From: a virus
Taxonomy: Duplodnaviria > Caudoviricetes
IMG/VR virus record: IMGVR_UViG_3300025832_000008
Span: 1-63,566 of that record
Length of the DNA: 63,566 bases
Strand: one strand, 5' to 3'
The position numbers and the translations under genes are program-made. Positions within the stretch are counted from its first letter, which is position 1. Each line of letters starts with the position of its first letter. Below the pieces are notes generated by a model that searched no databases, was not told the origin of the DNA, and was given only the letters and a program-made list of their open reading frames with translations. Shown in pieces: positions 188 through 58,186 of this stretch.

Positions 188-229
188 TGTATAGCACTTC
201 GTGCTAATAATACTTTGAAGTGATCAATA

Positions 230-286
230 AAAAGTGTGACGTAGGGTGGAGTATACTCTTCCAACCCCTATTTCACTGGTCGGCCT
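230..286. repeat. Hairpin element A, copy 1
   Basis: aaaagtgtgacgtagggtggagtatactcttccaacccctatttcactggtcggcct; homologous to 1075..1131. Confidence 0.75.
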
Positions 287-311
287 ACTTAGCGAGTGTA
301 TAGCAGAGTGC

Positions 312-515
312 TTACCTTATCCAGCCATCACCATAACCGGTGATTGCTCTAACCCACTTGTAGCTTTTCTCGCCACTTTCTGGATAATCAACTCTCTCGC
401 AACCGCTTCGAAAGTCGTAGTTAAACACTACAGAATCTCTTTTTAAGAGCATTCTACATATATAGAGACCACTATAATTGAATAGTATCTCTAAGTTGTA
501 CCTTACATTCTTCAT
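312..515 (-). CDS. Hypothetical protein (67 aa)
   Basis: ORF directly downstream of promoter motif copy 3; AT-rich start context. Confidence 0.7.
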   Translation of the reverse strand: MKNVRYNLEILFNYSGLYICRMLLKRDSVVFNYDFRSGCERVDYPESGEKSYKWVRAITGYGDGWIR

Positions 516-552
516 AATAATTGGTATTTAATTGATTAATTTATTTGAATTG

Positions 553-584
553 TTATATAACTTACTTCGTCAAGTGTCTGTGAG
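553..584 (-). promoter_or_regulatory. Promoter-like motif, copy 3
   Basis: ttatataacttacttcgtcaagtgtctgtgag, upstream of the ATG at 515. Confidence 0.65.
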
Positions 585-626
585 TTAAAACACCCGCCAA
601 GCACGTTACTTGGCGAGTGTGTAGCA

Positions 627-947
627 CTATGATACTTTATTGTACCATATTTGCTTCAATTCTGATTCTATGTCTTCTGCACTAGCATTATCAAGTTCAT
701 CATTAAGTAGATCACCTAAGTAATTTCTTCTTGGTTCAACTTGTGAGCTGTATAGTGCTATCACTTTGTACATCTCTTCATAGTCAGGGATGTCTTGATC
801 TGGTGATTTCACCCAATACTTGTCTTCACTGTTGTCTTGATCATGAGTGACACAGAAAATAAATTCTTGTAGTCTCTCAAACTCTTCACCCCAAATAGTC
901 TTCACTAATTTAGAGTATGTTTCATAGTTAAATTCCTTCTTTGTCAT
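627..947 (-). CDS. Hypothetical acidic protein (106 aa)
   Basis: ORF downstream of promoter motif copy 4. Confidence 0.8.
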   Translation of the reverse strand: MTKKEFNYETYSKLVKTIWGEEFERLQEFIFCVTHDQDNSEDKYWVKSPDQDIPDYEEMYKVIALYSSQVEPRRNYLGDLLNDELDNASAEDIESELKQIWYNKVS

Positions 948-974
948 GAGTATTAAAATTAATTGATTTACAGG

Positions 975-1009
975 TTATTATATAATTTACTTCGTCAAGA
1001 ATCTGCAAG
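975..1009 (-). promoter_or_regulatory. Promoter-like motif, copy 4
   Basis: ttattatataatttacttcgtcaagaatctgcaag, upstream of the ATG at 947. Confidence 0.75.
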
Positions 1010-1074
1010 AAACGAGTGTATAGCATTACACTTACAATGACAACACCTTGAGGTGACGATGTGAATTGACATAC

Positions 1075-1131
1075 AAAAGTATGACGCAGGTCGGAGTATA
1101 CTCTTCTGACCCCTGTCTCACTGGTCAGCCT
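1075..1131. repeat. Hairpin element A, copy 2
   Basis: aaaagtatgacgcaggtcggagtatactcttctgacccctgtctcactggtcagcct. Confidence 0.75.
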
Positions 1132-1160
1132 TTAAACTTAGTATGTTAGAGAGTGGTTAT

Positions 1161-1547
1161 TTACTTAGGTAAATCACCATCCAGCCACCATTCAAAAGCA
1201 ATTTGCTTTGCTACCACATACATCAGAGCATCATAAGGTGTATAACCTTCTTCAAACTCCCAGCCATTGTAAGTTTCACACCCGAGTAACTCTAAACAAG
1301 AGATTTTGTCAAGGTGATCAAGCAGCAGTGGATCGTGGTGGTCGGTGACGTGTGTTAGAAGCGTCATACTCTCTTCCATATACTCATGAGCTTCGCTTTT
1401 ATCACTTACTCCTTCAAAGTCATACTCAGGGTGTATATATGCCACTTGCATATCATACCCATTTAACTGAGCGTCTAGTTGATACTCATCTGGTGAACCT
1501 TTCACCGATACGAGTATATCATTTTTAGTGTTACTACAATTTTCCAT
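1161..1547 (-). CDS. Hypothetical, strongly acidic protein (128 aa)
   Basis: D/E-rich ORF. Confidence 0.8.
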   Translation of the reverse strand: MENCSNTKNDILVSVKGSPDEYQLDAQLNGYDMQVAYIHPEYDFEGVSDKSEAHEYMEESMTLLTHVTDHHDPLLLDHLDKISCLELLGCETYNGWEFEEGYTPYDALMYVVAKQIAFEWWLDGDLPK

Positions 1548-1582
1548 AATATATAAAATTAAATTGGTTACTTGTTTAAATT

Positions 1583-1607
1583 AGAGGACGCTCTTGCGAG
1601 CATCCTC
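1583..1607 (-). terminator. GNRA-loop hairpin, possible weak terminator or processing site
   Basis: Minus strand GAGGATGCTC-GCAA-GAGCGTCCTC, after ORF 1616..1801; no clear U-tract. Confidence 0.5.
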
Positions 1608-1615
1608 ATTAGTTG

Positions 1616-1883: not shown

Positions 1884-1952
1884 AAATTCGCTGGTTTCTT
1901 TGCGAGTGTATAGCACTTTTTTACAGGTATTGGTTAAGGTGGTGGACGATGT

Positions 1953-2306: not shown

Positions 2307-2354
2307 AGTGTATAGCAGCTTGCTGCTAAATAATATATACGATATATGCAGATG

Positions 2355-2759: not shown

Positions 2760-2790
2760 TTAATATATATTTAAACTCGTTAAGAATCTG
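2760..2790 (-). promoter_or_regulatory. Promoter-like motif, copy 7
   Basis: ttaatatatatttaaactcgttaagaatctg, fused directly to tatagca. Confidence 0.72.
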
Positions 2791-2840
2791 TATAGCATTT
2801 GCAGCTTGCTGCAATAAAATGAGTAGATAAAAAGAAGAGT

Positions 2841-3232: not shown

Positions 3233-3263
3233 TTATTATATAAATTTGCTCGTTAAGAATCTG
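3233..3263 (-). promoter_or_regulatory. Promoter-like motif, copy 8
   Basis: ttattatataaatttgctcgttaagaatctg. Confidence 0.72.
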
Positions 3264-3442
3264 TATAGCATTTTATTTATATTATTTATACCATACTACC
3301 GGGGAAAAGGTGAAATACTTAGTAGATATTATATAAAACCCAAAAAAATTTACGAAAAACTCTATAAAACAGGGGGACCCCTTTCGTTTCAAAAAACTTT
3401 CTTTTTTATTTTTTTATTTTCAAAATAAGGTATTATACAAAT

Positions 3443-4394: not shown

Positions 4395-5081
4395 ATGATG
4401 AGACAAACATGGTTAAATAGAAAAATAAATGGTCCTCGTCAAGTTGGTGAAGGTGTTAAACCTTATATAGCTAAAGACGATGCTGACTACGCTAAACGAA
4501 CACAAATGTATAATGATAGCTTAGCTGCGCACAATGCAACAGAGAATATTATCAATACTTTGAGAACCCCTAATATGATTGTCGATGATAATCCATATAC
4601 GGATCATAATTATTATACAAATGTAGAAGGTAGTACAGGTGACCTCAATAGTAAGCCATATGAATCTTATAGTGGTGTTAAGGGTGTTGCTCAAGATATT
4701 AAGACATTAAAGAGAACAGATAAGAGCTTAGGTAATACAGAGTCTGTTAAGAGTAAGATATATTATGATGGTGGAGGTGTAGGTCGTAGCCGTCACCGCT
4801 ATTCTACATTTGAATTACCGTATCGTCCAAAACCTAAGCAACCTATAGAAAGTAATAGATCTGATATGGCTAAAATGCCTACAAAAAAAGCTGCATTGTC
4901 ATCATCACAAAATAATAGCACTGTAAAATCTCGTGCACCAAAATACAATAAGCCATATAAGACTACATCTGGAAGCGATAAAAATTACGCTACAATTAAT
5001 AGATCAGATGGTACAGGTAATAAGAATTTAAGTAAGAATGAATACAATGCAGAGATGCGTTTATTTAAAAATAAAAAATAA
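4395..5081 (+). CDS. Hypothetical basic protein, paralogue of 3592..4389
   Basis: Shared QTWLNRKI.GPRQVG.G..KPY, DSLA and KPKQ..KMP motifs. Confidence 0.85.
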   Translation: MMRQTWLNRKINGPRQVGEGVKPYIAKDDADYAKRTQMYNDSLAAHNATENIINTLRTPNMIVDDNPYTDHNYYTNVEGSTGDLNSKPYESYSGVKGVAQDIKTLKRTDKSLGNTESVKSKIYYDGGGVGRSRHRYSTFELPYRPKPKQPIESNRSDMAKMPTKKAALSSSQNNSTVKSRAPKYNKPYKTTSGSDKNYATINRSDGTGNKNLSKNEYNAEMRLFKNKK

Positions 5082-5365
5082 TGGCACAGAAATTAAGTCA
5101 GAAAGCAAAGGCGGCTAAAGCTAAAAGAGATTTAGCGGCTGCTCTGACGCCTCGTAGAAGAAAGATGAAGGCTGCAAATCAGAATCGTAGAAGAGCGAAG
5201 CTTAAGAGCTTAACTGAAAAGTTTAATTCCGCTTCAGAAGCTAAGGCTTGGTTATCTGATAGAGATTGGGATCATGAAGATAGAAGATGGGAGTTGAAGG
5301 GCAAGAACAGAGGCAATGATGGTAATGGAACTAAGTCCGAAGGAAACAAAAAATATAAAGCGTAA
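5081..5365 (+). CDS. Small basic hypothetical protein (possibly degenerate HNH-like: DH...NRG)
   Basis: Translationally coupled ORF; K/R-rich; DWDHED...NRG pattern. Confidence 0.7.
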   Translation: MAQKLSQKAKAAKAKRDLAAALTPRRRKMKAANQNRRRAKLKSLTEKFNSASEAKAWLSDRDWDHEDRRWELKGKNRGNDGNGTKSEGNKKYKA

Positions 5366-46013: not shown

Positions 46014-46135
46014 TTTTTTAATTGATCATACTCATCTTTAGATATACATAAACTAAATTCATCATTTAACTTAGAGTCTATAACCTTAATTATAGCGTAT
46101 ATATCTTTCTTATTTACTACTTTAATATTTATCAT
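45998..46135 (-). CDS. Hypothetical protein (probable start 46135)
   Basis: Fills the gap after the primase-helicase. Confidence 0.5.
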   Translation of the reverse strand: MINIKVVNKKDIYAIIKVIDSKLNDEFSLCISKDEYDQLKNWQWD

Positions 46136-46142
46136 AATTATA

Positions 46143-47858: not shown

Positions 47859-47876
47859 TGTCAAAGTTATTCGGTT

Positions 47877-47903
47877 AAAAAAGCCCCGCAATTTGCGAGG
47901 CTT
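47877..47903 (-). terminator. Intrinsic terminator after ssb
   Basis: Minus strand AAGCCTCGC-AAATT-GCGGGGCTTTTTT. Confidence 0.75.
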
Positions 47904-47926
47904 ATATTTAAGTTAAAAATTCAAAT

Positions 47927-48250: not shown

Positions 48251-48277
48251 AATTTAATATTTATTTGTTTTTCTTTT

Positions 48278-49009: not shown

Positions 49010-49011
49010 TA

Positions 49012-49578
49012 TTAACGAAGTTGACTAAGTACTACAGGACTAACTTCATACTTAGCTGTAATCGCATCAATATTACCACCACCTTTTATATACTCTTTTG
49101 CTTTCTCTAAAGCTGCGCCATCTAACTTTGGTTTATGTTCTGATGAACCTTTGCCATGAGAATTAGTTGCGTCACTATCTTGAGTGTCATCAATTAAAAG
49201 TAAATTACCTAAAGAGTATTTCTTTCCATAAGAAGAGGCCGAGCCAAATGCTTGAGGAGTTTGCATACCTTTTTGAGCTAAATCAACTCCAACTAAAGCT
49301 GTTGCATGTATAGCATCTGTGCCATTACTAATTGTTGCTGTTGATAGAACAATCGGAACCGTATCAAATGAAACTATCTCTTCATTAATACGAATCGTTA
49401 CATTAAACTTAGTTAGATAAGGTTTGATAGCTTCTAAAATATCCTCTGCGGAGCGATACTTATATTTACCAAAGCTATTAAATCTACCTTTTTCTGTTTT
49501 GAAATTAGATTGAATAAAGCTTAATATCTCATTTAAAGATTTAGGCTCTTCAACAGTTTCTTTTTTTGTTACTGCCAT
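49012..49578 (-). CDS. erf: ERF-family ssDNA-annealing recombinase
   Basis: N.FGKYKYRS.EDILEA.KP and Q..GSASSY..KY.L..L..IDD..D.D. Confidence 0.9.
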   Translation of the reverse strand: MAVTKKETVEEPKSLNEILSFIQSNFKTEKGRFNSFGKYKYRSAEDILEAIKPYLTKFNVTIRINEEIVSFDTVPIVLSTATISNGTDAIHATALVGVDLAQKGMQTPQAFGSASSYGKKYSLGNLLLIDDTQDSDATNSHGKGSSEHKPKLDGAALEKAKEYIKGGGNIDAITAKYEVSPVVLSQLR

Positions 49579-49598
49579 TTGATTTTATTTAATTAATA

Positions 49599-49606
49599 CA
49601 AATATA
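49599..49606 (-). promoter_or_regulatory. Bacteroidota-type -7 box upstream of erf
   Basis: TATATTTG on the minus strand, 20 nt before the ATG at 49578. Confidence 0.5.
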
Positions 49607-49615
49607 ATATTTAAA

Positions 49616-50362
49616 TCATAGGAAATCAACCACTTGCGATAATTTTATTTTTTTTGATAAAGAGTCTATAGCTTGTTTTTTGATCTGTGAAATTTTCACA
49701 TGGGCACTAGTGCCATTAATACCAATCAACTTAGCTATCTTTTTTGCTTTATGCTTATCACAGTCTAATCCATAACCTAATCTTAGTACCTCATATTCAT
49801 CGTGTGACAATGCTGTTTTCATTATACTTAGTATAAATGAGTTCAACATATCAACTCGATATTCTTTATTTGAATCTGGAATATTATAGTACACGTTATT
49901 ACTAACGTCATCGTCTATACTTTTAAATATAGAATTAAAAAACATTCTTACTTTTTCTTCGTCGCTCTCACCGGCATTTCGTATTTCGTTTATTTTATGT
50001 TCAGGTATTCTCATACCAGCTCTATTTATATCTATAGCTCTTCGTATTGCGCCTTTTATTCTTTTTGAGAAAAAGCTTTTTATACTTTTTTCAGTATCTT
50101 CTTTTGACAATGCAAAATCTATATCCCATTTATCTACTGCCTTTATTAGACCAATAGATCCTTCTTGTATTGCGTCTTCTATATTTATAATACCAGATGT
50201 CTGATCTGCCATTGAAAATCCTCTTGCTATGTTTTCAACTAATGGTAAAAACTTAATTATAAGTTCCTCTCTAGTATATTCATCCCAAAACTTTCCATCA
50301 GGTTGGTTGCACTTAACATCTTTTTTATATATAGTGTAGTTCTTTAAGCTGTAATTTTTCAT
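49616..50362 (-). CDS. Phage-encoded sigma70-family RNA polymerase sigma factor
   Basis: Region 2: LI...LPLV..IA..F...ED.IQEG.IGLIKAVDK.D...I..AI.RAI...MRIP; region 4-like C-terminus. Confidence 0.9.
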   Translation of the reverse strand: MKNYSLKNYTIYKKDVKCNQPDGKFWDEYTREELIIKFLPLVENIARGFSMADQTSGIINIEDAIQEGSIGLIKAVDKWDIDFALSKEDTEKSIKSFFSKRIKGAIRRAIDINRAGMRIPEHKINEIRNAGESDEEKVRMFFNSIFKSIDDDVSNNVYYNIPDSNKEYRVDMLNSFILSIMKTALSHDEYEVLRLGYGLDCDKHKAKKIAKLIGINGTSAHVKISQIKKQAIDSLSKKIKLSQVVDFL

Positions 50363-50979
50363 AAACCATTGTTTAAAATTGTTTTCTCTTGTTTTAATTC
50401 ATCACCCATATTTCTATGGATCGTTCGAGAAGTACAACTCAATAGCTTAGCTATTTTACTTATAGTAATTCTTTCAGCATTGTTATTTATTTCTAACATA
50501 CATTGGTATATGTCATCTTTTTCAATACTTTTGGACCTACCTATTAGCTTACCAACAATTTTTAATTTCTCATCAACAGTTAAACCACAACCTATTTTAA
50601 ATATAACCTTACGCAGTCTATTCTTTGGTGCTAACTTAAATTCTTCATTATAAATCTCTGTTGCAAACTTAAGCAATAAACTACTTGGTACGTTTATTGA
50701 TACAAAGTTATTATGCTTATCAATTAAAAAGTAGCATAGTTCAAACCAATTAGCTTCAGGCATATCTTTATTTAAAAACCTAAGAACTAATAAATGCCAT
50801 TTTAAACTCTTGATAGAGTTAATCATAGCTTTTGTTCTGAATAACTCGTAACATTGATAAGTACCATCCTCGTAATACCAACCCCAGTTATAAAAATCAC
50901 TAGGTTTATCTGTCCAAGGATAACCAACATATATAATGCGTCGTCTATTTAACCATTCAGTATTTCGATTTTGTGACAT
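50359..50979 (-). CDS. Hypothetical protein with C-terminal helix-turn-helix
   Basis: TISKIAKLLSCTSRTIHRNM. Confidence 0.75.
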   Translation of the reverse strand: MSQNRNTEWLNRRRIIYVGYPWTDKPSDFYNWGWYYEDGTYQCYELFRTKAMINSIKSLKWHLLVLRFLNKDMPEANWFELCYFLIDKHNNFVSINVPSSLLLKFATEIYNEEFKLAPKNRLRKVIFKIGCGLTVDEKLKIVGKLIGRSKSIEKDDIYQCMLEINNNAERITISKIAKLLSCTSRTIHRNMGDELKQEKTILNNGL

Positions 50980-51018
50980 TAGCCCCTTATTATATATATC
51001 TTAAGGCCTATTGTCACA
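50972..51018 (-). promoter_or_regulatory. Long palindromic element P, copy 2 (overlaps start of the HTH gene)
   Basis: tgtgacattagcc-N20-ggcctattgtcaca; on the minus strand reads GTGACA-N17-TATAAT. Confidence 0.7.
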
Positions 51019-51080
51019 GTTTTGATAAAATCATGAATAGCCTATTTTTTTTAATAAAAAAATATTTGTGTGATTAAATG

Positions 51081-51088
51081 CAAAATTA
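51081..51088 (-). promoter_or_regulatory. Bacteroidota-type -7 box upstream of the HTH-sigma operon
   Basis: TAATTTTG(CA) on the minus strand, ~100 nt before the ATG at 50979. Confidence 0.45.
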
Positions 51089-51108
51089 ATACATTTCATA
51101 AAGGTTAT

Positions 51109-51315
51109 TTACATTGATTCATAATCATCACCTACTACAACGTCAAGTTCATCACCGATTCTTGAAATTGTATTAGATAACTGAATGGCTAGATCTTCAA
51201 TCCATTCTCTTGATTTATTACTTAGTATTATTTTCTTTTCTTTAGTACTTAGTTCTTCAAAAACTATATTATCAGATCCAGATCTAAAAAATATTCCAGA
51301 TAAATTTCGTTTCAT
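51109..51315 (-). CDS. Hypothetical protein
   Basis: ORF track. Confidence 0.7.
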   Translation of the reverse strand: MKRNLSGIFFRSGSDNIVFEELSTKEKKIILSNKSREWIEDLAIQLSNTISRIGDELDVVVGDDYESM

Positions 51316-51602
51316 ATATATATAATGTTAAATAAATTGTTATACGATGCGTTTAGATGACATTTAACGACATCTAAATCAATTTATGTATATACAATAA
51401 AATTGAAAAAGAGTGGTCGTTAAAATCAATATTTAGAACTTAAGTAATTTAAGTTTTCTTCTGTATTTTATTAATAATACTATGTTATTATACTCAATAC
51501 TTTGTTGTTTAATAAGTGAGTTTAATATCTCACACTCTAATTGAGCAATATATAATTCTATAAAATAAATATGCTTGTATTTTCTAATATTCATAGTTAT
51601 TA

Positions 51603-51926
51603 TTATTTTCGTTGCTCCGCACAGTATATTAATGATTTTTCAATGACATCTTGTATTTCTTCTAATATTTCACAAACAAAAACAATAGAGTCTATTTCAA
51701 TGGTTATTCTATTATCATAATCAAAATTAAAACTTAATTCCATTAAGTCATTAACATTAAAATCTGAAGCATCTATATTTGATAAAGTATTTTCAACTAT
51801 AGATTTGACTTCTGAAAATGTAAATAATTCTTCTTGCGTGTTTTTGTATTTTTCAACTAAATCTTCTAACTCTTTTGTGTTTTTGTGTTTTTCAACTAAA
51901 TCTTCTAACTCTTTAAGTAAACTCAT
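51603..51926 (-). CDS. Hypothetical acidic protein with a 13-aa tandem duplication
   Basis: KELEDLVEKHKNT / KELEDLVEKYKNT. Confidence 0.75.
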   Translation of the reverse strand: MSLLKELEDLVEKHKNTKELEDLVEKYKNTQEELFTFSEVKSIVENTLSNIDASDFNVNDLMELSFNFDYDNRITIEIDSIVFVCEILEEIQDVIEKSLIYCAEQRK

Positions 51927-51947
51927 TTTTATTTGTATTTATTTGAT

Positions 51948-51981
51948 TTTTATATATTTTACTACGTTTTATATCTGTAAG
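51948..51981 (-). promoter_or_regulatory. Promoter-like motif, copy 9
   Basis: ttttatatattttactacgttttatatctgtaag, upstream of the ATG at 51926. Confidence 0.6.
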
Positions 51982-52051
51982 ACACTGATAGCATATATGC
52001 TTTGTAGATATACCACTTGGTATCAATGTATTACAAATTCTACATCTTATA

Positions 52052-52267
52052 TTATTTTCTCCATTCATTAAAAAAATCTTCTAATATATTTATTGAACTA
52101 TATCTATTTTCAAAAAATTCAACAACATCTTCTGATGTGTAGTTGTTTTTATACCATGATGGATAAAACTCTGTTACTTCATAGCCATTGATTTTCTCGT
52201 AAAAAGATATAACTTTCATTAATTGATATTTATCAAGATGTTCCCATTTTGCAGCTATTCCATCCAT
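52052..52267 (-). CDS. Hypothetical protein
   Basis: ORF track. Confidence 0.65.
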   Translation of the reverse strand: MDGIAAKWEHLDKYQLMKVISFYEKINGYEVTEFYPSWYKNNYTSEDVVEFFENRYSSINILEDFFNEWRK

Positions 52268-52381
52268 TGTTGTTCATTAAATTTTAATATTAAACTTCTT
52301 ATTTTTTTACCAAGCTCTGCATCGTTAGGTTCTTCATCTATTAAGGTATACATGTCGTGTAGCATGTATAGCATCTCAATT

Positions 52382-52747
52382 TCAGTTTTGCCTTTGTAAG
52401 TATTTGTCATAATTTTTTAATATATAAGTTACTAAGTATTCATATCTAAGATGACGGTAATCTATAAGAACTCTTTGCTTGCATTCACGTCTATGTACTT
52501 TAAGATATTTATCTATCCAACCGAAAAAAGATTTAATACAAGGATTTATTTGGTAAGCATTAACGTTTTTATGGCTTATTAGCACTCTAACGTAGCCAGA
52601 CTTATAAATACCAAACTTTGGTTTATAACCCCACTTATTTTTTAAAGGTAATTCCCATATTTCTGTGCCATTTTTTTTCTGTATATCAGATGTAACTTCA
52701 GTACACCCAAAATGAATAAGCAACTCTTTAGATTCAACTATTGTCAT
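52382..52747 (-). CDS. Hypothetical protein
   Basis: Downstream of promoter motif copy 10. Confidence 0.75.
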   Translation of the reverse strand: MTIVESKELLIHFGCTEVTSDIQKKNGTEIWELPLKNKWGYKPKFGIYKSGYVRVLISHKNVNAYQINPCIKSFFGWIDKYLKVHRRECKQRVLIDYRHLRYEYLVTYILKNYDKYLQRQN

Positions 52748-52763
52748 TGTTATTTAATTTTAA

Positions 52764-52798
52764 TTATTATATATATTAGTACGTTATAGATCTGCAAG
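52764..52798 (-). promoter_or_regulatory. Promoter-like motif, copy 10
   Basis: ttattatatatattagtacgttatagatctgcaag. Confidence 0.75.
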
Positions 52799-52805
52799 AG
52801 CAGTA

Positions 52806-53048
52806 TTATAAATTTATTCTTCTTGATCTAGCTAATGCCATTGTTATTTCATATGGCAAGCATTCGCATCCGTCATAATCAATTAGTTCACCGTCTTCAA
52901 ATATTAGTTTACCACAAGCATAATATATTGATCCTTCAGTATCTGAATCGTATAGCTCCCAAAAACCGTGTTCAATACCAAATATCTCACTTGGTACCAT
53001 AATTAGGTAATCTTTATCATGACTTTTGCCCTCGATCCTTTCAAACAT
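52806..53048 (-). CDS. Hypothetical acidic protein (L.DYDG...LP)
   Basis: ORF track. Confidence 0.75.
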   Translation of the reverse strand: MFERIEGKSHDKDYLIMVPSEIFGIEHGFWELYDSDTEGSIYYACGKLIFEDGELIDYDGCECLPYEITMALARSRRINL

Positions 53049-53487
53049 TAGTTATTTTATTTAATCCTACTATTTCTCTTACAATGTTTAATGTTTCAAC
53101 TAATGAACTAGGATCAATATTTCTTTTTTGAAATAAAAATATAGCGTCTTTCATTGTATTAACATGGTATATAACTGTAGCGTGATCTCTGTTTAGTATA
53201 CGCCCAACCTTAGGGAAGGTAATACCGTAATCAACGTAGAATATATAAGATAAGCATCGTCTAAGCATCACTAAATCAGCACCACGTTTTTTAGATATAA
53301 CTTCAGACACCGTGGCAATCTTAGTTGTTTCACAAACGGTCTTCATACTAGACATTGCTTTAGCAAGTCTTTGTGTGTTAATTCCATTTCTATCAGCGTT
53401 TTCTGTTACAACTGTTCTGTTTAGTGTTGAATATAGAGAATCTAATTCTGTTTGTTTTTCTCGTATTTCTTTAAGTAATTCTTCCAA
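53041..53487 (-). CDS. DnaA C-terminal (domain IV) HTH-like DNA-binding protein
   Basis: S.KR...LV..R....Y.......T...VG..LNRDHATVIY matches the DnaA domain IV signature RDHTTV. Confidence 0.8.
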   Translation of the reverse strand: MEELLKEIREKQTELDSLYSTLNRTVVTENADRNGINTQRLAKAMSSMKTVCETTKIATVSEVISKKRGADLVMLRRCLSYIFYVDYGITFPKVGRILNRDHATVIYHVNTMKDAIFLFQKRNIDPSSLVETLNIVREIVGLNKITNV

Positions 53488-53488
53488 T

Positions 53489-53794
53489 TTAAAATAATTT
53501 TTGTGTTAATGCTATTTTAGCTGTTTTTGTTATCTCTTTATTTTTACCGCCTATATGCCAGTTTATTAATTCTTTTTTCTTAATCCATCCATATTCTTTC
53601 CAACAATATAATGTAAATATATCGCCGTTTTCAAATTGAAATAACCATTCGTACTGAACTTTTTCATCAGGTGGTCCTTCGTAATCTGGTTCACCAAGTT
53701 CTGCATAAAGCTCACTTAATGTTGCTTCTATAGAAACACCATGATACGATGTTCCATTTATCATGCTCTCATGATCTAGTCTTTTAAATTTCAT
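53489..53794 (-). CDS. Hypothetical protein (KV..EW...FT.Y.WK...WHIGG)
   Basis: Conserved-looking phage small-protein motif. Confidence 0.8.
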   Translation of the reverse strand: MKFKRLDHESMINGTSYHGVSIEATLSELYAELGEPDYEGPPDEKVQYEWLFQFENGDIFTLYCWKEYGWIKKKELINWHIGGKNKEITKTAKIALTQKLF

Positions 53795-53938
53795 GTTATT
53801 AAAGATATTAATTGTGATACTACATACATAACGCCATAGAAGAAAGCAAACCCTACTGGTACTATAATTAAATAAGCTATTATATGTAAAGCTGCTCTTA
53901 TAAATTCCTCACTCATGTTGTTATTTTATTTATTTTAG

Positions 53939-53973
53939 TTAATATATAATTTACTACGTTATAAATCTGCAAG
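53939..53973 (-). promoter_or_regulatory. Promoter-like motif, copy 11
   Basis: ttaatatataatttactacgttataaatctgcaag. Confidence 0.72.
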
Positions 53974-54104
53974 TGTTATTAAAACCCCAACAAATAATGA
54001 CCACATCCCTTGTCTGAGTTCAGTGTATTGTCAAAAGTTGCTAGGGTTATGTGTTAAGGTTCTAACCTCCTCCCAAAGATTTATTTAACTTAACACAATT
54101 TCAT

Positions 54105-54383
54105 TTAATCTTTCCAGATCATTACTGTTCCTGGATCATAATACTCGCAGTACCAACCTAATTTATCTAATTCTTTAACGAATTTATTTAGTACACCGAT
54201 TTCATATAGAGAACTTTCTGCATAGTAATCGAAAATATCTAATCCGTCTAATGTTTCACAATTTTCGGCGCTAACCCATATACCACCTGGAGTACCATCA
54301 AATTGTTCTGAAGTTCTAACAAATTTTAATCTTGTTTTCAAGAAGTCCATTACATTTTTTCTATTATTTTTCATGTATAGCAT
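54105..54383 (-). CDS. Hypothetical protein
   Basis: ORF track. Confidence 0.75.
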   Translation of the reverse strand: MLYMKNNRKNVMDFLKTRLKFVRTSEQFDGTPGGIWVSAENCETLDGLDIFDYYAESSLYEIGVLNKFVKELDKLGWYCEYYDPGTVMIWKD

Positions 54384-54612
54384 CTATATTTTCTACTATA
54401 AGCTCATCACCATGTGCTGATTGTATAGTTAAACCTAACTCATTGAAAATATTTTCAAACGCTGTTGAGTTATCAATGATGTTGTTGAGGTGGACTGCCG
54501 CCACCGGATCGTCGGATGTTGCCATGTTTATGAATCCTAAATAGTCAGGAGACTTAGGATCAAATTGGTAGTCGGTTGCAATTACTTGCTGAATGAATTC
54601 TGTTGTTGTCAT
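54364..54612 (-). CDS. Hypothetical protein
   Basis: ORF track. Confidence 0.7.
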   Translation of the reverse strand: MTTTEFIQQVIATDYQFDPKSPDYLGFINMATSDDPVAAVHLNNIIDNSTAFENIFNELGLTIQSAHGDELIVENIDAIHEK

Positions 54613-54650
54613 TTCTTTTAATTTTATTAAGTTATTAGTAATTCGTATAA

Positions 54651-54896
54651 TTAGCTGTCTATTGAAAATCTGATCATTCCATCAGAGATACATTTAGTAC
54701 CTCCGTAAACAGAACCTTCTGTTTCTTCTTCAACGGCACGTATCAAATCATGTGCACTAATGCCTATATTTCTTGGTATAGGATATTTAAAGTATTCAAT
54801 ACCATTTTCTGCTTTTTGTTTAGCTATTGTAATGATATTACCTACTTGAGTTCTTTGATTAATTTGTTGCTGATTTTTATTTACTTTTATTTTCAT
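54651..54896 (-). CDS. Hypothetical protein
   Basis: ORF track. Confidence 0.7.
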   Translation of the reverse strand: MKIKVNKNQQQINQRTQVGNIITIAKQKAENGIEYFKYPIPRNIGISAHDLIRAVEEETEGSVYGGTKCISDGMIRFSIDS

Positions 54897-54901
54897 AATT
54901 T

Positions 54902-55120
54902 CTATTTGTTACTAAGTTGATTATAAATTTTTGTTAGTATTACTTGCATAAGATCTTCATATAGATCTTGGAATGTCTCATCTTCTTCAGTCATACAGTC
55001 TGCTTCAACAAAATCCATAACTTTGTAAGTTAACTCAGTTGCTGATATTTCCTTGCTTAGATTAAAGAAATAATCTACTGTGTCTTCTGACCACGTGAAT
55101 GCGCTTTTGTAATTTTTCAT
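54902..55120 (-). CDS. Hypothetical acidic protein
   Basis: ORF track. Confidence 0.7.
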   Translation of the reverse strand: MKNYKSAFTWSEDTVDYFFNLSKEISATELTYKVMDFVEADCMTEEDETFQDLYEDLMQVILTKIYNQLSNK

Positions 55121-55121
55121 T

Positions 55122-55265
55122 TTATACTTGTTTATGGAATTTCCAGATTTTATTGTACGCTTGTTTACTAAATTTAGCGTAGCTCTTTTTATTGGTGTAT
55201 AGCACTTTGTTGTATTCCTCTGAAGTAAACGGTGTACATTTTAGATTATCAACTGATACTTTCAT
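55122..55265 (-). CDS. Hypothetical 47-aa protein (not in ORF track)
   Basis: MKVSVDNLKCTPFTSEEYNKVLYTNKKSYAKFSKQAYNKIWKFHKQV; coupled to its neighbours. Confidence 0.6.
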   Translation of the reverse strand: MKVSVDNLKCTPFTSEEYNKVLYTNKKSYAKFSKQAYNKIWKFHKQV

Positions 55266-55450
55266 TAGTCTTTTTGATAATAAGTTAAACCTTTATAGTT
55301 AATGAACTGATATATACCATCAGCATCTCCATAGGATCTACAACCAAACTTATTAGGTATTTTACATAGATCGAAATGCTCGAACTTTTGACCATTTAGA
55401 GTTATAATTTTCTTAAATGAAGTCGGTGAGTTAAATTTTAGATTTGCCAT
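55265..55450 (-). CDS. Hypothetical protein (61 aa), paralogue of 1616..1801
   Basis: Aligns over its full length. Confidence 0.85.
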   Translation of the reverse strand: MANLKFNSPTSFKKIITLNGQKFEHFDLCKIPNKFGCRSYGDADGIYQFINYKGLTYYQKD

Positions 55451-55473
55451 TATGTTTATTTATTTAATTTAAG

Positions 55474-55508
55474 TTATTATATAATCACTTTCGTTATAGA
55501 TCTGCAAG
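55474..55508 (-). promoter_or_regulatory. Promoter-like motif, copy 12
   Basis: ttattatataatcactttcgttatagatctgcaag. Confidence 0.75.
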
Positions 55509-55856
55509 TAACAACAGTAACATCTTTAGTTCTTCAACTGTTTCAGCTTGAAACTCATTTAAGAGCTCTTCACCGTATATATAAACTAACATGTTAACAG
55601 TGTTTTCACTATTATCGTAAATACCATATGTGTCACCATAATTGTCCCTTTCATATTGTTGGCAAATACTTACCGCTTCAAACGGATCTATGTTATGCTT
55701 TTGAAGCCACATATTACATTCAAAGTACCCTATAATATAGTAATCCTCGTTAAACGCCTGAAAGTGCCACTCTTCAGTATTATCATTTGTTAGTACACCT
55801 TCGTTAACAAGGTCTAAAACGTATCTTGTTAGTTCTATTTTTATTGAGTGTTTCAT
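55494..55856 (-). CDS. Acidic protein, possibly Ocr-like DNA mimic
   Basis: FNEDYYIIG...WL...YE.DN.G...E..VNM.VYI.GEE.L, resembling podovirus early acidic proteins. Confidence 0.6.
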   Translation of the reverse strand: MKHSIKIELTRYVLDLVNEGVLTNDNTEEWHFQAFNEDYYIIGYFECNMWLQKHNIDPFEAVSICQQYERDNYGDTYGIYDNSENTVNMLVYIYGEELLNEFQAETVEELKMLLLLLADL

Positions 55857-55862
55857 ATCTTG

Positions 55863-56018
55863 TTAACAACATTTACATTTACTCCATTCTTTTCCGTTCC
55901 TACAGGTCTCACCCATATCTTCGTACTCGTCATCAAATACAGCGTGCTCTAGGCATTCACCGCATAGTTCGTCACTTAGGTAGCTAGCTTCAGCTCCACA
56001 ACAATTACTTGTACTCAT
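55863..56018 (-). CDS. Cys-rich 51-aa protein (not in ORF track)
   Basis: MSTSNCCGAEASYLSDELCGECLEHAVFDDEYEDMGETCRNGKEWSKCKCC. Confidence 0.7.
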   Translation of the reverse strand: MSTSNCCGAEASYLSDELCGECLEHAVFDDEYEDMGETCRNGKEWSKCKCC

Positions 56019-56304
56019 GTTTTACTGTTATCAATTTATTATCTATATCTAATGTTATAATACCGTCTTTAAATTCTTTAAGTCTTTTAAGTATGTCGTG
56101 TTTATTACCTTTGATTCCAAAGTATTTTTTTACATCACCTATTTTCCAATGAGCGTTAGGCTTCATACCTGTATGTACATATATACTTAGCTCACATACA
56201 AGACAGCATAGATTGTAGTACCCTCTATTAGATTGCTTACCATTTATCATTAAAGGTTTAGCCCAGTCTTTCTCAAACGGTGTTGGTTCAATTACTTTTT
56301 TCAT
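56005..56304 (-). CDS. Hypothetical protein
   Basis: ORF track. Confidence 0.75.
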   Translation of the reverse strand: MKKVIEPTPFEKDWAKPLMINGKQSNRGYYNLCCLVCELSIYVHTGMKPNAHWKIGDVKKYFGIKGNKHDILKRLKEFKDGIITLDIDNKLITVKHEYK

Positions 56305-56495
56305 GATTCTTGATTTTTTAAATAGTTAAAGTGTTCCGTGTATAGCAACTCAAGGTCACTAATGGTTAATGGTACACGATTTAGTTCTTTCGATGTAGAG
56401 ACTATTTGTTCTCGTTGATCTATAGTTAGTTGATTCCACCAATGCCACACGCCTGAGCTTCTGCTAACATGGTTATATGTTTTATTATTTCTCAT
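56301..56495 (-). CDS. Hypothetical protein
   Basis: ORF track. Confidence 0.65.
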   Translation of the reverse strand: MRNNKTYNHVSRSSGVWHWWNQLTIDQREQIVSTSKELNRVPLTISDLELLYTEHFNYLKNQES

Positions 56496-56500
56496 ATTTA

Positions 56501-56767
56501 CTAAGTGTTATCGCTAATATATGACATGAAGTCAAGTGCGGTTACACAAGGATCATCGTGCTCGTTACCACCAGGTGTATGTTGGTATTCAATGCCACAT
56601 GTCTGAGCTTCTGCATCCCACCAGAACATGTATCCAAATGAGCTTACATCTTTGCGATCTATATAATCTTTAATATAGATTTCAGTGCTTGATTTTTCTA
56701 CATACTCGTAGTAACTAGCTATTAGTTTAATTTCTTCTTCAATGTTAATTGCTTTGTCGTTTTTCAT
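56501..56767 (-). CDS. Hypothetical protein
   Basis: Downstream of promoter motif copy 13. Confidence 0.72.
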   Translation of the reverse strand: MKNDKAINIEEEIKLIASYYEYVEKSSTEIYIKDYIDRKDVSSFGYMFWWDAEAQTCGIEYQHTPGGNEHDDPCVTALDFMSYISDNT

Positions 56768-56793
56768 TATGTGCGTTATTATTAATTTATAGG

Positions 56794-56824
56794 TTAATAT
56801 ATATTTTAGTTCGTTATAGATCTG
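56794..56824 (-). promoter_or_regulatory. Promoter-like motif, copy 13
   Basis: ttaatatatattttagttcgttatagatctg. Confidence 0.68.
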
Positions 56825-57123
56825 TTGGTTACTATTTCACCGTTAATCATTTTGGTTGTAGTTCCATCTTTCCATTTAATTTCTATATCGTCTTTCTCGT
56901 TTACTAATTGTTCTTTTATCATTAGATTCACTAACCATACTAGATCATCAATTAGATCTTGTTCGTCTTCTCTTGGACAGTCAACCTCGTCTTCTATATA
57001 AAAGGTCACTTCACAACGTAACTCATCGGGATTCCTCATGCCTATCTCTATAAAGTGGTCTAATACTTCCTCTTTCCAGACATCGTCTTCTCTTGGGTTT
57101 CTTATCCTTAGGTACTTCTCCAT
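56806..57123 (-). CDS. Hypothetical acidic protein
   Basis: ORF track. Confidence 0.72.
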   Translation of the reverse strand: MEKYLRIRNPREDDVWKEEVLDHFIEIGMRNPDELRCEVTFYIEDEVDCPREDEQDLIDDLVWLVNLMIKEQLVNEKDDIEIKWKDGTTTKMINGEIVTNRSITN

Positions 57124-57135
57124 AATTTCTATTTA

Positions 57136-57360
57136 TTACTGATCTTTTTTAAGTGTCATTGAATTTACTTTATCTATAAGTTCATTGCCTACCATTGTGA
57201 AGTAGCCTTCAGCGTAACGATAAACAGTATCAGGAACTAAAATAGGTGTTTTACCACTATTGCCCATATGTATTACTTCTTGTTCAGCTTGTTTAATAGC
57301 TTCTTGTAACGCTGTGGTTATAAACCACTTTTCAAATCCGTTAAATTTAGTTCTACTCAT
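57136..57360 (-). CDS. Hypothetical protein
   Basis: ORF track. Confidence 0.72.
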   Translation of the reverse strand: MSRTKFNGFEKWFITTALQEAIKQAEQEVIHMGNSGKTPILVPDTVYRYAEGYFTMVGNELIDKVNSMTLKKDQ

Positions 57361-57370
57361 GTTTACTTAT

Positions 57371-57580
57371 TTAATTTTTAATTGCTTTTAAGTGTACAGC
57401 ATTTGCTTCAGCACCGTACACTAGGTTAATTAATTTATTTCTGTAAATTAACTCTGTTCTGTGATTCTTGAAATTAAACTCAATCTCAATATGAGCATCT
57501 ATTTGCTCAATTACCTCTTCTTTGGTAAGATAAGCGCTAATAAATCTGAAGTGATCAATAGCATTAGTTGTTAGTTCCAT
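57371..57580 (-). CDS. Hypothetical protein
   Basis: ORF track. Confidence 0.68.
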   Translation of the reverse strand: MELTTNAIDHFRFISAYLTKEEVIEQIDAHIEIEFNFKNHRTELIYRNKLINLVYGAEANAVHLKAIKN

Positions 57581-57837
57581 GGTTTCTGTAATTTATTTAT
57601 TAGTAAGTAAGTCATACCACAAGAGTCAAAATGAGTTGAAAATTCTATTTTATTACTTATTAGTTCTAAAACTATATCAGTTATATTATGGATATACTCA
57701 TACACTATATAACTATTTTCTTGAGTGTAATAATCATACTTGTCTTTGTATTCTGTATTATCAATTAAGTATTCAGCGAAACCGTTTCCGTCTTTGTACT
57801 CTTTACTTAATATTGGTAACTTGGTTAAGTCAATCAT
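57571..57837 (-). CDS. Hypothetical protein
   Basis: Downstream of promoter motif copy 14. Confidence 0.7.
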   Translation of the reverse strand: MIDLTKLPILSKEYKDGNGFAEYLIDNTEYKDKYDYYTQENSYIVYEYIHNITDIVLELISNKIEFSTHFDSCGMTYLLINKLQKPWN

Positions 57838-57862
57838 AGTTGAAAATTTATTAAATTATAGG

Positions 57863-57897
57863 TTATTATATATTATACTTCGTTATAGATCTGCAAG
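57863..57897 (-). promoter_or_regulatory. Promoter-like motif, copy 14
   Basis: ttattatatattatacttcgttatagatctgcaag. Confidence 0.75.
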
Positions 57898-58110
57898 ACA
57901 CTGTAATAGAAGCCATCTAATGACTTTAAATAGCTATAATGGTAAATACTATTAATTGTAGTATTAATATTATTAAGAGTTGATAAGAATGCTTTTTAAA
58001 CATGGTAATGGATATTATTAGTTAAATAGAATTATAGTATGCTAAAACAGTGGTTGTTGGTTATACAACTAATCTCTGCATCAAGCATAGTTTTAGTACA
58101 ATAAAAAAAC

Positions 58111-58158
58111 TGTGACATTAGGCCATTAGATATACTATAGTAAGGGGCTATTGTCACA
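58111..58158 (+). promoter_or_regulatory. Long palindromic element P, copy 3
   Basis: tgtgacattaggcc-N21-ggctattgtcaca, flanked by AAAA and TTTT. Confidence 0.65.
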
Positions 58159-58186
58159 CTTTTAATAACGGTGTATAGCAAAGGTT

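Follow-up and report, generated by a model that had tools for sequence, protein, structure and literature searches.

A strand-polar nine-base motif in the early arm of a phage genome and a co-occurring candidate nicking protein

Arrangement of the Locus

The window, that is, the whole stretch of DNA analysed here, comprises 63,566 nucleotides of a tailed marine phage. Its positions 1-4868 recur at 58676-63566 as a terminal duplication (99.3% identity, 9 mismatches and 2 gaps), and the genome unit is of about 58.7 kb. The early, or replication, arm encodes resolvase-like, MazG-like, thymidylate synthase (TS)-like and Erf-like proteins, a T7 gp4-like primase-helicase, an exonuclease, and sigma-like, HTH and DnaA-domain-IV proteins, along with many small ORFs. 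A nine-base word recurs along this arm, reading TGCTATACA on the minus strand and TGTATAGCA on the plus strand. The phage was present, as contigs, in 21 runs. The features are as follows.

43287..58711, minus: early/replication arm, running on over the unit junction to 3535-1
3262..3270, minus: motif copy (TGCTATACA on this strand), the first of the early arm; overlaps promoter-like element A (TACAGATT at 3258)
2789..2797, minus: motif copy, intergenic; overlaps promoter-like element A at 2785
2309..2317, minus: motif copy, intergenic; promoter-like element A (2298) just downstream
1907..1915, minus: motif copy in the extended form TGCTATACACTCGC; element A (1875) 24 nt downstream
1017..1025, minus: motif copy, intergenic; element A (1001) 8 nt downstream
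618..626, minus: one-mismatch variant (TGCTACACA on this strand) adjoining the stop of ORF 627-947; occurs again in the terminal duplication at 59316-59324
297..305, minus: motif copy; stop of ORF 312-515 lies 6 nt before it; the counterpart in the terminal duplication (58995-59003) reads TGTATATCA instead of the motif
188..196, minus: motif copy in the extended form TGCTATACACTCGC; abuts element A at 179
58172..58180, minus: motif copy, intergenic, following a terminator-like hairpin; inverted-repeat arm (58146-58163) 8 nt away
56339..56347, minus: motif copy within ORF 56301-56495
55196..55204, minus: motif copy within the small ORF 55122-55265
54374..54382, minus: motif copy where ORFs 54364-54612 and 54105-54383 overlap
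52365..52373, minus: motif copy between ORFs 52382-52747 and 52052-267, within the 51-aa ORF 52255-52410
49307..49315, minus: motif copy within the Erf-like gene 49012-49578, read as T-GCT-ATA-CA (Ala-Ile-His)
45186..45194, minus: motif copy within the TS-like gene 45122-45841
43211..43219, minus: last motif copy, where the two arms converge; 6 nt past the stop of a 2565-aa plus-strand ORF and beyond the closing hairpin of the minus arm
58863, 59715, 60605, 61007, 61487 and 61960, minus: six copies in the terminal duplication (58676-63566), repeats of copies 188-3262
5081..5365, plus: 94-aa very basic protein (P0001), candidate reader and nickase

Copy Number and Placement of the Motif

All 15 copies named in a preliminary description of this DNA are exact TGTATAGCA on the plus strand at the positions it gave, and the variant it had placed at 618 is present, reading TGTGTAGCA. 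By exact count, the window holds 21 copies of TGTATAGCA on the plus strand and none on the minus strand, TGCTATACA having 0 occurrences on the plus strand; the single orientation noted earlier is thereby borne out. Each genome unit carries 15, and in all of these the motif stands on the early-arm sense strand. Under Markov models of orders 0-5, 0.39-0.77 copies per strand per unit are expected, in agreement with the earlier rough estimate of less than one, and the k-mer count that had been proposed as a check gives a clear excess over this background on one strand with 0 on the other. In 100 dinucleotide shuffles, the mean was 1.12 and the maximum 4, both strands summed. Of the 9-mers that occur five times or more, TGTATAGCA comes second; the one ahead of it, GTGTATAGC, is the motif itself in a frame one base over. 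Five of the copies are preceded by CGAGTGT.

Copy density is highest where the early arm starts and falls with distance, the gaps widening from about 0.4-0.9 kb near the start to 2-4 kb further out. With respect to gene boundaries, placement is near-random, 80% of copies lying in ORFs as compared to 86% of random points. Little preference is seen for the 100 nt before start codons (26% vs 21%) and a modest one for the 20 nt after stops (14% vs 5%). The suggested rut-like role does not fit this placement, nor does a promoter-like one.

Confinement to the minus-strand arm, another claim of the preliminary description, holds for this genome, in which the plus-strand arm (3500-43204) has no copy on either strand (about 0.2-0.6 expected), but not strictly for its relatives. 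These carry one to three inverted copies close behind the point where the early arm starts; such copies run antisense to the earliest genes and lie upstream of the late arm. A few more copies are found in the late arm.

Conservation in Related Phages

The relatives of the phage are marine and of Flavobacteriia type. In 80 related marine phage loci (1.35 Mb), 190 forward and 29 reverse copies were counted; by score, the motif is first of all 9-mers in 12 of these loci and within the first three in 20. The motif-rich loci keep every one of the nine positions fixed. In 37 such loci, there are 151 exact forward copies, whereas no single-substitution variant exceeds 7 forward copies. Of 169 distinct contexts, 94% have C or T at position 10.

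The motif is under selection at the nucleotide level. Conservation at synonymous positions, which had been proposed as a check, was observed at the Erf site, where all 23 related loci encoding A-I-H use T-GCT-ATA-CA(Y) with no synonymous change while the neighbouring codons vary. At a MazG site, rare codons create the word in 9 of 74 loci. A polar, exact and selected word of this kind agrees with the general proposal of a directional signal or protein-binding site.

The 94-aa Protein

Among whole genomes, the family of the 94-aa protein is the only one found in all 11 that are motif-rich and in none of the 5 that are motif-free. Among 30 related genomes, the 20 with the protein hold 3-14 copies of the motif: 3-14, with a median of 9, in the 17 with a strong match and 3-4 in the 3 with a divergent one. 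The 10 without it hold 0-3, with 3 each in G014 and G018 (Mann-Whitney p of about 2e-5 across all 30). On a primase tree, genomes with and without the protein are interleaved. The best tree requires 6 changes in its presence, at least 2 of them forced by well-supported branches; high copy number (at least 5) likewise requires 6 changes. In the independent pairs tested, high copy number shifted the same way as protein presence and never the opposite way, the relatives being non-independent and well-supported branches offering only 2 contrasts, too few to give a sign test any power.

The protein led to a further 80 contigs; over the 306 kb upstream of its gene these carry 167 copies, where about 2.6 per strand would be expected. 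The copies fall into two opposed sets, which switch orientation about 1.5-2 kb upstream of the gene. Some contigs have the protein with little or no motif (e.g., L287-L294, L307, L312 and L338), and a search of such contigs for a substitute motif found none.

The N-terminus of the protein is arginine-rich, and D62, H65, N76 and R77 are invariant in the family. An AlphaFold model (pLDDT 83.5) predicts a three-helix region followed by a beta-beta-alpha unit (strands 61-64 and 69-72, then helix 73-77) that bears the invariant D62, H65 and N76. An ESM Atlas neighbour cluster is labelled HNH, with PF13392 on 70% of its members (score 0.92, 176 shared features, rank 9). The protein had no match in Pfam, PHROG or NCBIfam, nor in a PDB sequence search; fold searches returned nothing significant (Foldseek best E 2.8, VIA-align best Z 4.6), and Pfam HNH models did not match any of 52 family members at E up to 5. 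Because of this lack of family, PDB and fold matches, the nuclease assignment draws on one short motif, on the predicted topology and on a single lead from the Atlas.

Proposed Function and Its Alternatives

We give about even chances to the reading in which the motif copies are recognition sites of a phage nicking system and the 94-aa protein is a candidate His-Me-finger-like nickase. The sequence TGCTATACA(Y) on the minus strand of the window would be recognised by a phage-encoded, site-specific and strand-specific system. The packaged genome may then carry localized single-strand interruptions, densest at the end with the earliest genes and sparser along the early arm, as in the Pseudomonas phages tf and LUZ24-like, T5 and phiKMV-like phages. 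As enzyme, the 94-aa basic protein of ORF 5081-5365 is the likely candidate. Its helical, arginine/lysine-rich N-terminal part may read the 9-10 bp site, and its C-terminal beta-beta-alpha unit, with the invariant D-x-D-H...N-R, may cut one strand. The nicking itself, the choice of the cut strand, the 94-aa protein as cutter and a purpose for the nicks are what we infer; the statistics, polarity, gradient, exactness and nucleotide-level selection of the motif, its absence from host-type genomes and its co-occurrence with the protein were observed directly.

The same co-occurrence data apply if the 94-aa protein binds the motif but does not cut, acting as a polar DNA-bound factor near the early end of the genome, for instance in packaging, in ejection or in protecting the ends, or by acting on the first early promoters as a roadblock or regulator. 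The lack of a nuclease family match suits such a factor. Further, in the relatives, the first copies abut early promoters on their -35 side in either orientation, and tandem copies stand 14-62 nt apart close to the orientation switch point; the former could reflect a regulatory role. However, motif-free relatives have promoters of this type that function without the word, intragenic copies spread over 19 kb are hard to square with regulation, the parallel in tf consists of nicks, and D62, H65 and N76 on the predicted beta-beta-alpha unit are typical of metal-dependent nucleases. A non-cutting factor is, on balance, unlikely.

It is more doubtful still that the motif serves transcription, read on the non-template strand or in the early RNA as a signal for pausing, termination or antitermination, the arginine-rich 94-aa protein then taking the part of a lambda N-type factor. 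All 15 copies here do read in the sense direction of the early arm, at least one within most promoter-to-promoter units, and the word is similar to the extended -10 element, TGnTATAnn. In lambda, nutL-N stands beside the divergence point; similarly, the opposed sets of the relatives flank theirs, with the gene of the arginine-rich protein just downstream. Against this stand the weak preferences around starts and stops, the inverted copies antisense to the earliest genes, and the 11 late-arm copies in 10 relatives that are antisense to late genes (about 3.6 expected). No signal was seen in RNA structure or accessibility at the motif (mean pairing probability 0.569 vs 0.551 for composition-matched words, p 0.31), and the invariant residues resemble a catalytic set more than a piece of a disordered arginine-rich motif.

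It is quite improbable that the motif is a signal for replication, placed on the lagging-strand template as, for example, a site at which the T7 gp4-like primase-helicase would prime or load. The orientation switch in the relatives, a flip of polarity at a single point, would then mark an origin; the 0.4-4 kb spacing is within the range of Okazaki fragments, and the primase-helicase is the best-conserved early protein (73% mean identity). Yet it is equally conserved in motif-poor relatives, known gp4-type primases recognise trinucleotides, and the 40-kb late arm, which must be replicated too, has few or no copies.

Very little weight is given to a promoter element for the sigma-like factor (ORF 49616-50362), on the model of the single-element late promoters of T4. 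The encoded Sigma70_r2 domain, a short, exact, TATA-containing word and the inverted copies upstream of the late arm in relatives would suit it, but most copies are in ORFs with slight enrichment upstream of start codons, and the 40-kb late arm here has no copy upstream or inside. Moreover, a conserved copy sits at the far end of the early arm beside a terminator (an equivalent copy follows the last early gene at 15 of 60 related sites), and the sigma-like gene is equally present in motif-rich (38 of 42) and motif-poor (17 of 22) relatives.

Least credible are the Chi, KOPS and DnaA-box links raised in the preliminary description: the copies are polar and spread out, the sequence agrees with the DnaA-box consensus TTATNCACA at 5 of its 8 specified positions, and the genome also encodes a DnaA_C domain protein (53041-53487), but the word is at the level of its reversed control in 20 Bacteroidota genomes (0-39 per strand, far below what Chi or KOPS needs), a host-read signal being therefore unlikely, a DnaA-IV homologue occurs in 1 of 42 motif-rich loci, and every one of the nine positions is fixed, even where the box-like part does not reach.

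Comparison with Known Systems

I-HmuI, a phage endonuclease of the HNH_3 family (PF13392) with a His-Me finger (HNH, beta-beta-alpha-metal), is a nicking enzyme. Like such nickases, the candidate is a small phage protein with a predicted beta-hairpin and helix carrying Asp-His...Asn, and its Atlas neighbour cluster is labelled HNH_3. Unlike them, it has no zinc-binding cysteines, a His-to-Asn spacing of only 11 residues and no Pfam HNH or structural match. Chi and KOPS, host-read octamers, are also short, exact, strand-polar words found in and between genes; the motif here differs in tracking a phage gene, with no enrichment in host-type genomes.

Site-specific, one-strand nicks in the packaged genome are described for T5/BF23 and phiKMV-like phages in the sections of PMC3517423 and bioRxiv 10.64898/2026.09.21.753257 drawn on here, which call their function unclear as late as 2026. 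As given there, the T5 consensus (R/GCGCRGG) is short and present on the un-nicked strand too, and that of phiKMV is longer and bipartite; in neither case is there a sharp 9-mer from which every site could be predicted.

The closest known parallel, one that the preliminary description did not raise, is that of the nick-associated 9-mers of tf and LUZ24-like Pseudomonas phages, which the motif matches in polarity, exactness and gradient. In phage tf, according to the portion of Glukhov et al. 2012 (PMC3517423) used here, 14 nicks were mapped at TACT/RTGMC, on the top strand only, 11 of them in the early half; sites with a single substitution are few and carry no nick. The GenBank record of tf puts the sites on the early-arm sense strand, within genes as well as between them, with two antisense in the late arm. 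In phage Rembedalsseter, 13 nicks lie at WACTRTGAC, a motif enriched in 60 relatives, as stated in the part of Dougherty et al. 2025 (PMC11780129) used here. The nicks of these two phages were mapped experimentally, whereas the present motif is known from sequence. The word is also a different one, the phage lineage and host phylum are unrelated, and a homologue of the 94-aa protein was not detectable in tf. The second, opposed set of 1-4 copies in the relatives has no counterpart in the tf account as far as that portion goes, and the portions of PMC3517423 and PMC11780129 used name no nickase gene for tf, whereas here one candidate gene tracks the motif. The likeness is nevertheless broad: both are podophages with two convergent arms, encoding MazG and a gp4-like primase-helicase, and both carry a non-palindromic 9-nt word (13-14 copies in those phages) on one strand, far above chance. 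In both, single-substitution variants are rare, the copies lie on the early-arm sense strand in and between genes, concentrated at the early genes and thinning out, and the word is kept in dozens of relatives and absent outside the clade.

Occurrence of the 9-mer in the genome

The polar 9-mer, TGTATAGCA, is present in 21 copies on the + strand of the window and in none on the − strand. The window is the entire sequence recorded for this virus. Its first part (1-4868) recurs at 58676-63566, where the two copies are 99.3% identical and differ by 9 mismatches and 2 gaps. This puts the genome unit at about 58.7 kb, with 15 copies of the word against 0 on the opposite strand. The 15 coordinates in the preliminary description all proved exact, and its statement that the word keeps to one strand was borne out. 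The terminal duplication, of 4.9 kb, is inexact: one copy holds 23 extra bases, and one of the nine mismatches turns a 9-mer copy into TGTATATCA at 58995. It could be either a true long terminal repeat or the outcome of a strain-mixed assembly around a circle.

In dinucleotide shuffles, the 9-mer was found 1.12 times on average and at most 4 times (both strands). A k-mer count against a Markov background, suggested in the preliminary description, gave 0.39-0.77 expected copies per strand per unit for orders 0-5, as against the 15 found. Among the 9-mers with at least 5 occurrences it ranks second, and the first, GTGTATAGC, is the same word shifted by one base. As was first described, the structural + arm (3.5-43.2 kb) is devoid of the 9-mer, on either strand. 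The copies lie at 0.5-32% of the unit from the early-arm start and are unevenly spread, with more weight on the early end; the gaps widen from 0.4-0.9 kb at the start of the arm to 2-4 kb farther on.

Elements of the window that bear on the 9-mer are as follows.

3535 through the unit junction down to 43287, − strand: early (replication) arm
51980 to 3262, − strand: 14 sites of a tripartite promoter-like motif, TTGCAGAT / yTAACGAag / TATATAATAA (e.g. 57896, 55507, 52797, 2305, 1008, 186, 98)
5081-5365, + strand: ORF of a very basic 94-aa protein

In the early arm, small early ORFs come first and are followed by replication-type genes. It codes for DnaA-domain-IV, HTH, sigma-like, Erf-like and exonuclease proteins, as well as for a T7 gp4-like primase-helicase and thymidylate-synthase-like, MazG-like and resolvase-like proteins. 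The + arm encodes the terminase, the portal, virion proteins, a GroEL-like protein, a protein with the crAss-type muzzle C-terminal domain (PF25729; ORF 30674-32677) and an ORF of 2565 aa. Structural relatives are found among Flavobacterium, Cellulophaga, Tenacibaculum and Maribacter phages, and the phage was found in 21 sequencing runs, with no RNA run listed. The runs that match half or more of the sampled words carry the labels of marine or marine-sediment metagenomes.

The promoter-like motif, TTGCAGAT-yTAACGAag-N-TATATAATAA, is found ahead of about 14 early genes of the − strand, with −35- and −10-like blocks about 18 nt apart, and is separate from the 9-mer; relatives have variants of it, such as CACGGACTTA...GATAATATA. 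In the first 3.3 kb, the 9-mer is located about 0-24 nt upstream of this motif at a variable spacing, and beyond that it lies inside ORFs or beside terminator-like hairpins.

Several other elements are present in the same regions. A perfect 18-nt inverted repeat (GGCTATTGTCACACTTTT / AAAAGTGTGACAATAGCC) at 58146-58163 and 62184-62201 (equivalent to 3486-3503), 4020 nt apart, encloses the earliest early region, where promoters and 9-mer copies are dense, and this element also adjoins 9-mer copies in two relatives (L093, L096). Three tandem ACTCTCTACA repeats at about 3455-3500, in the divergent region immediately upstream of the + arm, lie beside A/T-rich runs and a G/C hairpin and may be an origin or a regulatory array. 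Three 75-aa paralogues in tandem (1992-2219, 2393-2620, 2878-3105; repeat units about 81% identical) each have their own promoter-like element and 9-mer copy. At 44332-45841, the thymidylate-synthase-like gene, which has blastn similarity to the dCMP hydroxymethylase region of a Bacteroides phage, adjoins the MazG-like pyrophosphatase gene, a pair that hints at a modified base. A tRNA scan of the window found none; in three related loci (L064 3877, L070 3155, L077 3273) the 9-mer was seen by eye 4 nt upstream of the 5' end of an apparent tRNA gene.

Conservation of the 9-mer in related phages

Out of 297 primase relatives, 80 IMG/VR loci (1.35 Mb) were picked via the primase-helicase (71-82% identity) and set with the early arm as the + strand. 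They hold 190 forward copies of the 9-mer against 29 reverse ones; it scores best of all 9-mers in 12 loci and comes within the top three in 20. The word is also exact, as 37 motif-rich loci contain 151 exact forward copies, whereas each single-substitution variant occurs at most 7 times in that orientation. At base 10, 94% of 169 distinct contexts have C or T; beyond it the sequence lacks conservation, leaving a conserved element of 9-10 nt. Out of 30 related genomes, 16 have 6-14 copies. The more distant relative MW202828.1 has 0, and no replacement motif emerged in the motif-poor relatives, either by one-mismatch counts or at the arm-end site. The early arm of MW202828.1 (L009/L010; 43745-55170) carries 14 copies of a perfect 16-bp palindrome, GTGTCGTTAACGACAC, mostly directly after stop codons and 15-40 nt ahead of the next start.

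Comparison of synonymous positions, another check put forward at the outset, indicates that selection acts on the 9-mer at the nucleotide level. In the Erf-like gene, all 23 loci coding for Ala-Ile-His at the site use T-GCT-ATA-CA(Y) with zero synonymous change, some of these rows being near-identical contigs. The residue before it varies (D, N, S) and its codon always ends in T, while the next Ala and Thr codons vary freely; loci devoid of the 9-mer code for different residues here. At the MazG-like site, 9 of 74 loci build the 9-mer from (V/L)-L-Y-I via CTA-TAC, and the rest use other codons. As these two cases show, sites of the 9-mer are gained, lost and at times retained.

Placement of 9-mer copies relative to genes, compared with random points
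Position; 9-mer copies; random points
In an ORF; 80%; 86%
Upstream of a start, by 100 nt or less; 26%; 21%
After a stop, by 20 nt or less; 14%; 5%

The placement of the 9-mer ignores gene boundaries, which argues against a classical promoter or terminator. The first two rows do not show the placement ahead of gene starts that a promoter for a host or phage sigma factor would have. The predicted RNA pairing at the 9-mer equals that of composition-matched words, so no RNA-structure signal was found.

A small basic protein that accompanies the 9-mer

When all ORFs of 11 motif-rich genomes (including the present one) were compared with those of 5 motif-free genomes, one family only was found in 11/11 and 0/5, namely, that of the very basic 94-aa product of ORF 5081-5365. 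A profile built from 52 family members was then searched in 30 related genomes.

Copies of the 9-mer by match to the 94-aa protein in 30 related genomes
Match; genomes; 9-mer copies
Strong; 17; 3-14 (median 9)
Divergent; 3; 3-4
None; 10; 0-3

The copy number differs with the match (Mann-Whitney p ~2e-5, in genomes that are related to each other). On the primase tree, genomes with and without the protein are interleaved: the best tree needs 6 changes, and well-supported branches force at least 2. A high number of 9-mers (5 or more) likewise needs 6 changes. In independent pairs, a high number tracked the presence of the protein and never the opposite; a sign test has no power here because only 2 such pairs lie on well-supported branches. 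Several lineages (L287-L294, L307, L312, L338) have the protein and little or no 9-mer. A replacement word was not found in them, de novo k-mers giving promoter words and a TGCTATACG variant in L326. An association search within 10 kb of the primase returned no positively associated family; the gene of the 94-aa protein lies outside that range. With the low-complexity filter on, tblastn of the protein against 50,697 phage records gave no match at E up to 1.

The family comprises over 200 proteins, none of which has a name or a Pfam domain. Its invariant residues are L5, A9, K13, R16, D17, A21, Q34, D62, H65, N76 and R77, with H65 and N76 invariant in 52 sequences. An AlphaFold model (pLDDT 83.5) has three helices, followed by strands 61-64 and 69-72 and a helix at 73-77. 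The DxDH...NR motif is located on this predicted beta-beta-alpha unit, with the His at the end of strand 1 and the Asn in the helix, so that the predicted topology is that of His-Me finger/HNH proteins. The Asp-His...Asn arrangement is that of the His-Me finger nucleases. In the ESM Atlas, a neighbouring cluster (rank 9, score 0.92, 176 shared features) is labelled HNH_3, with PF13392 on 70% of its members. Searches against Pfam, PHROG and NCBIfam gave no match, nor did a profile search against the PDB, and neither Foldseek nor VIA-align gave anything above noise.

Polarity of the 9-mer across whole genomes

In whole related genomes, the early-arm copies are sense-oriented, and 1-3 inverted copies lie just behind the early-arm start, between the earliest early genes and adjoining their promoters. 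In the late arm of ten relatives, 11 copies are on the strand of the early-arm copies (antisense to the late genes) as against 5 on the other, with about 3.6 expected per strand; these were counted on a 1-kb map, and copies closer than about 3 kb to the arm start were excluded. The inverted and the late-arm antisense copies therefore link the polarity less with transcription units than with the DNA strand and a position close to the early end.

A further 80 contigs were found via the 94-aa protein itself, out of at least 392 IMG/VR contigs carrying it. The 306 kb upstream of its gene contain 167 copies of the 9-mer, where about 2.6 are expected per strand. On the early-sense strand there are 95, nearly all at a distance of over 1.5 kb from the gene; the other strand has 72, and 71 of these are within 3 kb of it. 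From the gene start onward, 769 kb hold 0 and 8 copies on the two strands. The copies form two opposed sets, and the point from which these diverge lies about 1.5-2 kb upstream of the gene.

It was also observed that 31 of these 80 contigs (L281-L360) end within 1.5 kb upstream of the gene and 45 within 3 kb; on the downstream side the flanks are nearly always whole. This points to physical genome termini, or to breaks in assembly, close to the switch point of the 9-mer. Dense nick sites could account for the breaks seen by the early end in many assemblies of these phages.

A candidate nick-site motif and its putative enzyme

That packaged phage DNA can carry localized nicks has been known since T5. 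The best-supported reading, to which we give an even chance on the sequence evidence, is that the 9-mer is a nick-site motif and the 94-aa protein a candidate His-Me-like nickase. The TGCTATACA copies would be the nick sites, with one strand cut at each. Its main rival, which seems unlikely, keeps the pairing of the 9-mer with the protein and removes the cutting; the co-occurrence in the 30 genomes fits it equally, and the invariant residues on the predicted beta-beta-alpha unit, of a type common in metal-dependent nucleases, count against it. The transcription-linked readings rank next. Copies do lie beside promoter-like motifs in the first 3.3 kb; overall, their placement takes no account of gene boundaries, and their polarity goes with the DNA strand more than with transcription units. 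A promoter for a virion RNA polymerase was rejected, as the 2565-aa ORF (35507-43204, the last of the + arm) lacks a DFDxD-type motif and matches no family in Pfam or PHROG and nothing in the PDB. The accessible text of the paper on the crAss-like phage phi14:2 reports no early-promoter motif.

The preliminary description had proposed a polar signal or a protein-binding site, and this part stood; the candidates that it named did not. In 20 Bacteroidota genomes taken as host-type (15 are Flavobacteriaceae by record title), the 9-mer occurs 0-39 times per strand, like its reversed control, and is therefore unlikely to be a host Chi or KOPS. A rut site is a long, C-rich, G-poor stretch of unstructured RNA, and an element of 9-10 nt with no flanking conservation does not resemble it. 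A DnaA box read by the DnaA-domain-IV protein was rejected because a homologue is found in 1 of 42 motif-rich and 0 of 22 motif-poor loci, each covering about 10 kb on either side of the primase gene. A search for close relatives via this protein found none. Motif-rich and motif-poor relatives carry the genes for the sigma-like, HTH, Erf-like, exonuclease and primase proteins equally often. A literature search with the literal 9-mer returned unrelated primer and shRNA matches only.

The nickase reading may be carried further, though we hold this extension to be rather doubtful: that a large group of marine Flavobacteriia-type podophages has its site-specific nickase in the basic family of about 90 aa, with its minimal Asp-His...Asn beta-beta-alpha unit, and that the opposed sites mark physical termini. 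The two sets would diverge from the early end of the genome, each on the strand whose 5' end is at the nearer terminus, an arrangement that might serve ejection, packaging, or nick-primed recombination and replication. If true, a 'nicked-genome' phage would for the first time have an enzyme assigned to it, one that, with its site of 9-10 bp, would rank among the smallest natural nickases. A natural nicking enzyme of this kind would be a useful tool; efforts to engineer nickases with sites longer than 8 bp have been described (PMC8845596).

Comparison with known nicked phage genomes

In the podophage tf, which has two convergent arms, 14 nicks were mapped, each after base 4 of 5'-TACTRTGMC-3', and the three single-substitution sites were not nicked (PMC3517423). 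All 14 sites are on the top strand and 0 on the bottom, at 4.5-80% of the genome, with 11 in the left half; in tf-related phages a variant word occurs 8-9 times, on one strand and at comparable positions (PMC3517423). In the tf record, 12 nicks lie within genes and between them, on the sense strand of the early arm, which also codes for MazG and a primase-helicase, and two are antisense in the late arm. In phage Rembedalsseter, 13 nicks were mapped by Nanopore sequencing at WACTRTGAC, where the coverage of one strand is near zero, and 60 relatives are enriched for this word (net 9.0 copies against 0.7 outside the group), weighted to one side (PMC11780129). The authors call the function of these nicks unknown (PMC11780129), and a 2026 preprint still calls it unclear (bioRxiv 10.64898/2026.09.21.753257). 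The accessible text of these three sources, a non-exhaustive set, names no nickase gene for localized nicks. A profile search for the 94-aa family did not find it in tf or in MW202828.1, and Cellulophaga phage phi10:1 has only the primase module in common with the present phage.

Every sequence-level feature of the tf and Rembedalsseter systems, in which the nicks were mapped, is present here. If the nick-site reading is right, the signature would reach abundant marine phages of another host phylum and come with a concrete candidate gene. As in those phages, the word is short, non-palindromic and far above chance on one strand (15 vs 0; 190 vs 29 in the relatives), and single-substitution variants are rare (at most 7 vs 151 exact forward copies). 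It is enriched across related phages, with 0-3 copies in the 10 genomes lacking the candidate gene, and is concentrated towards the early end, at 0.5-32% of the unit here and 4.5-80% in tf.
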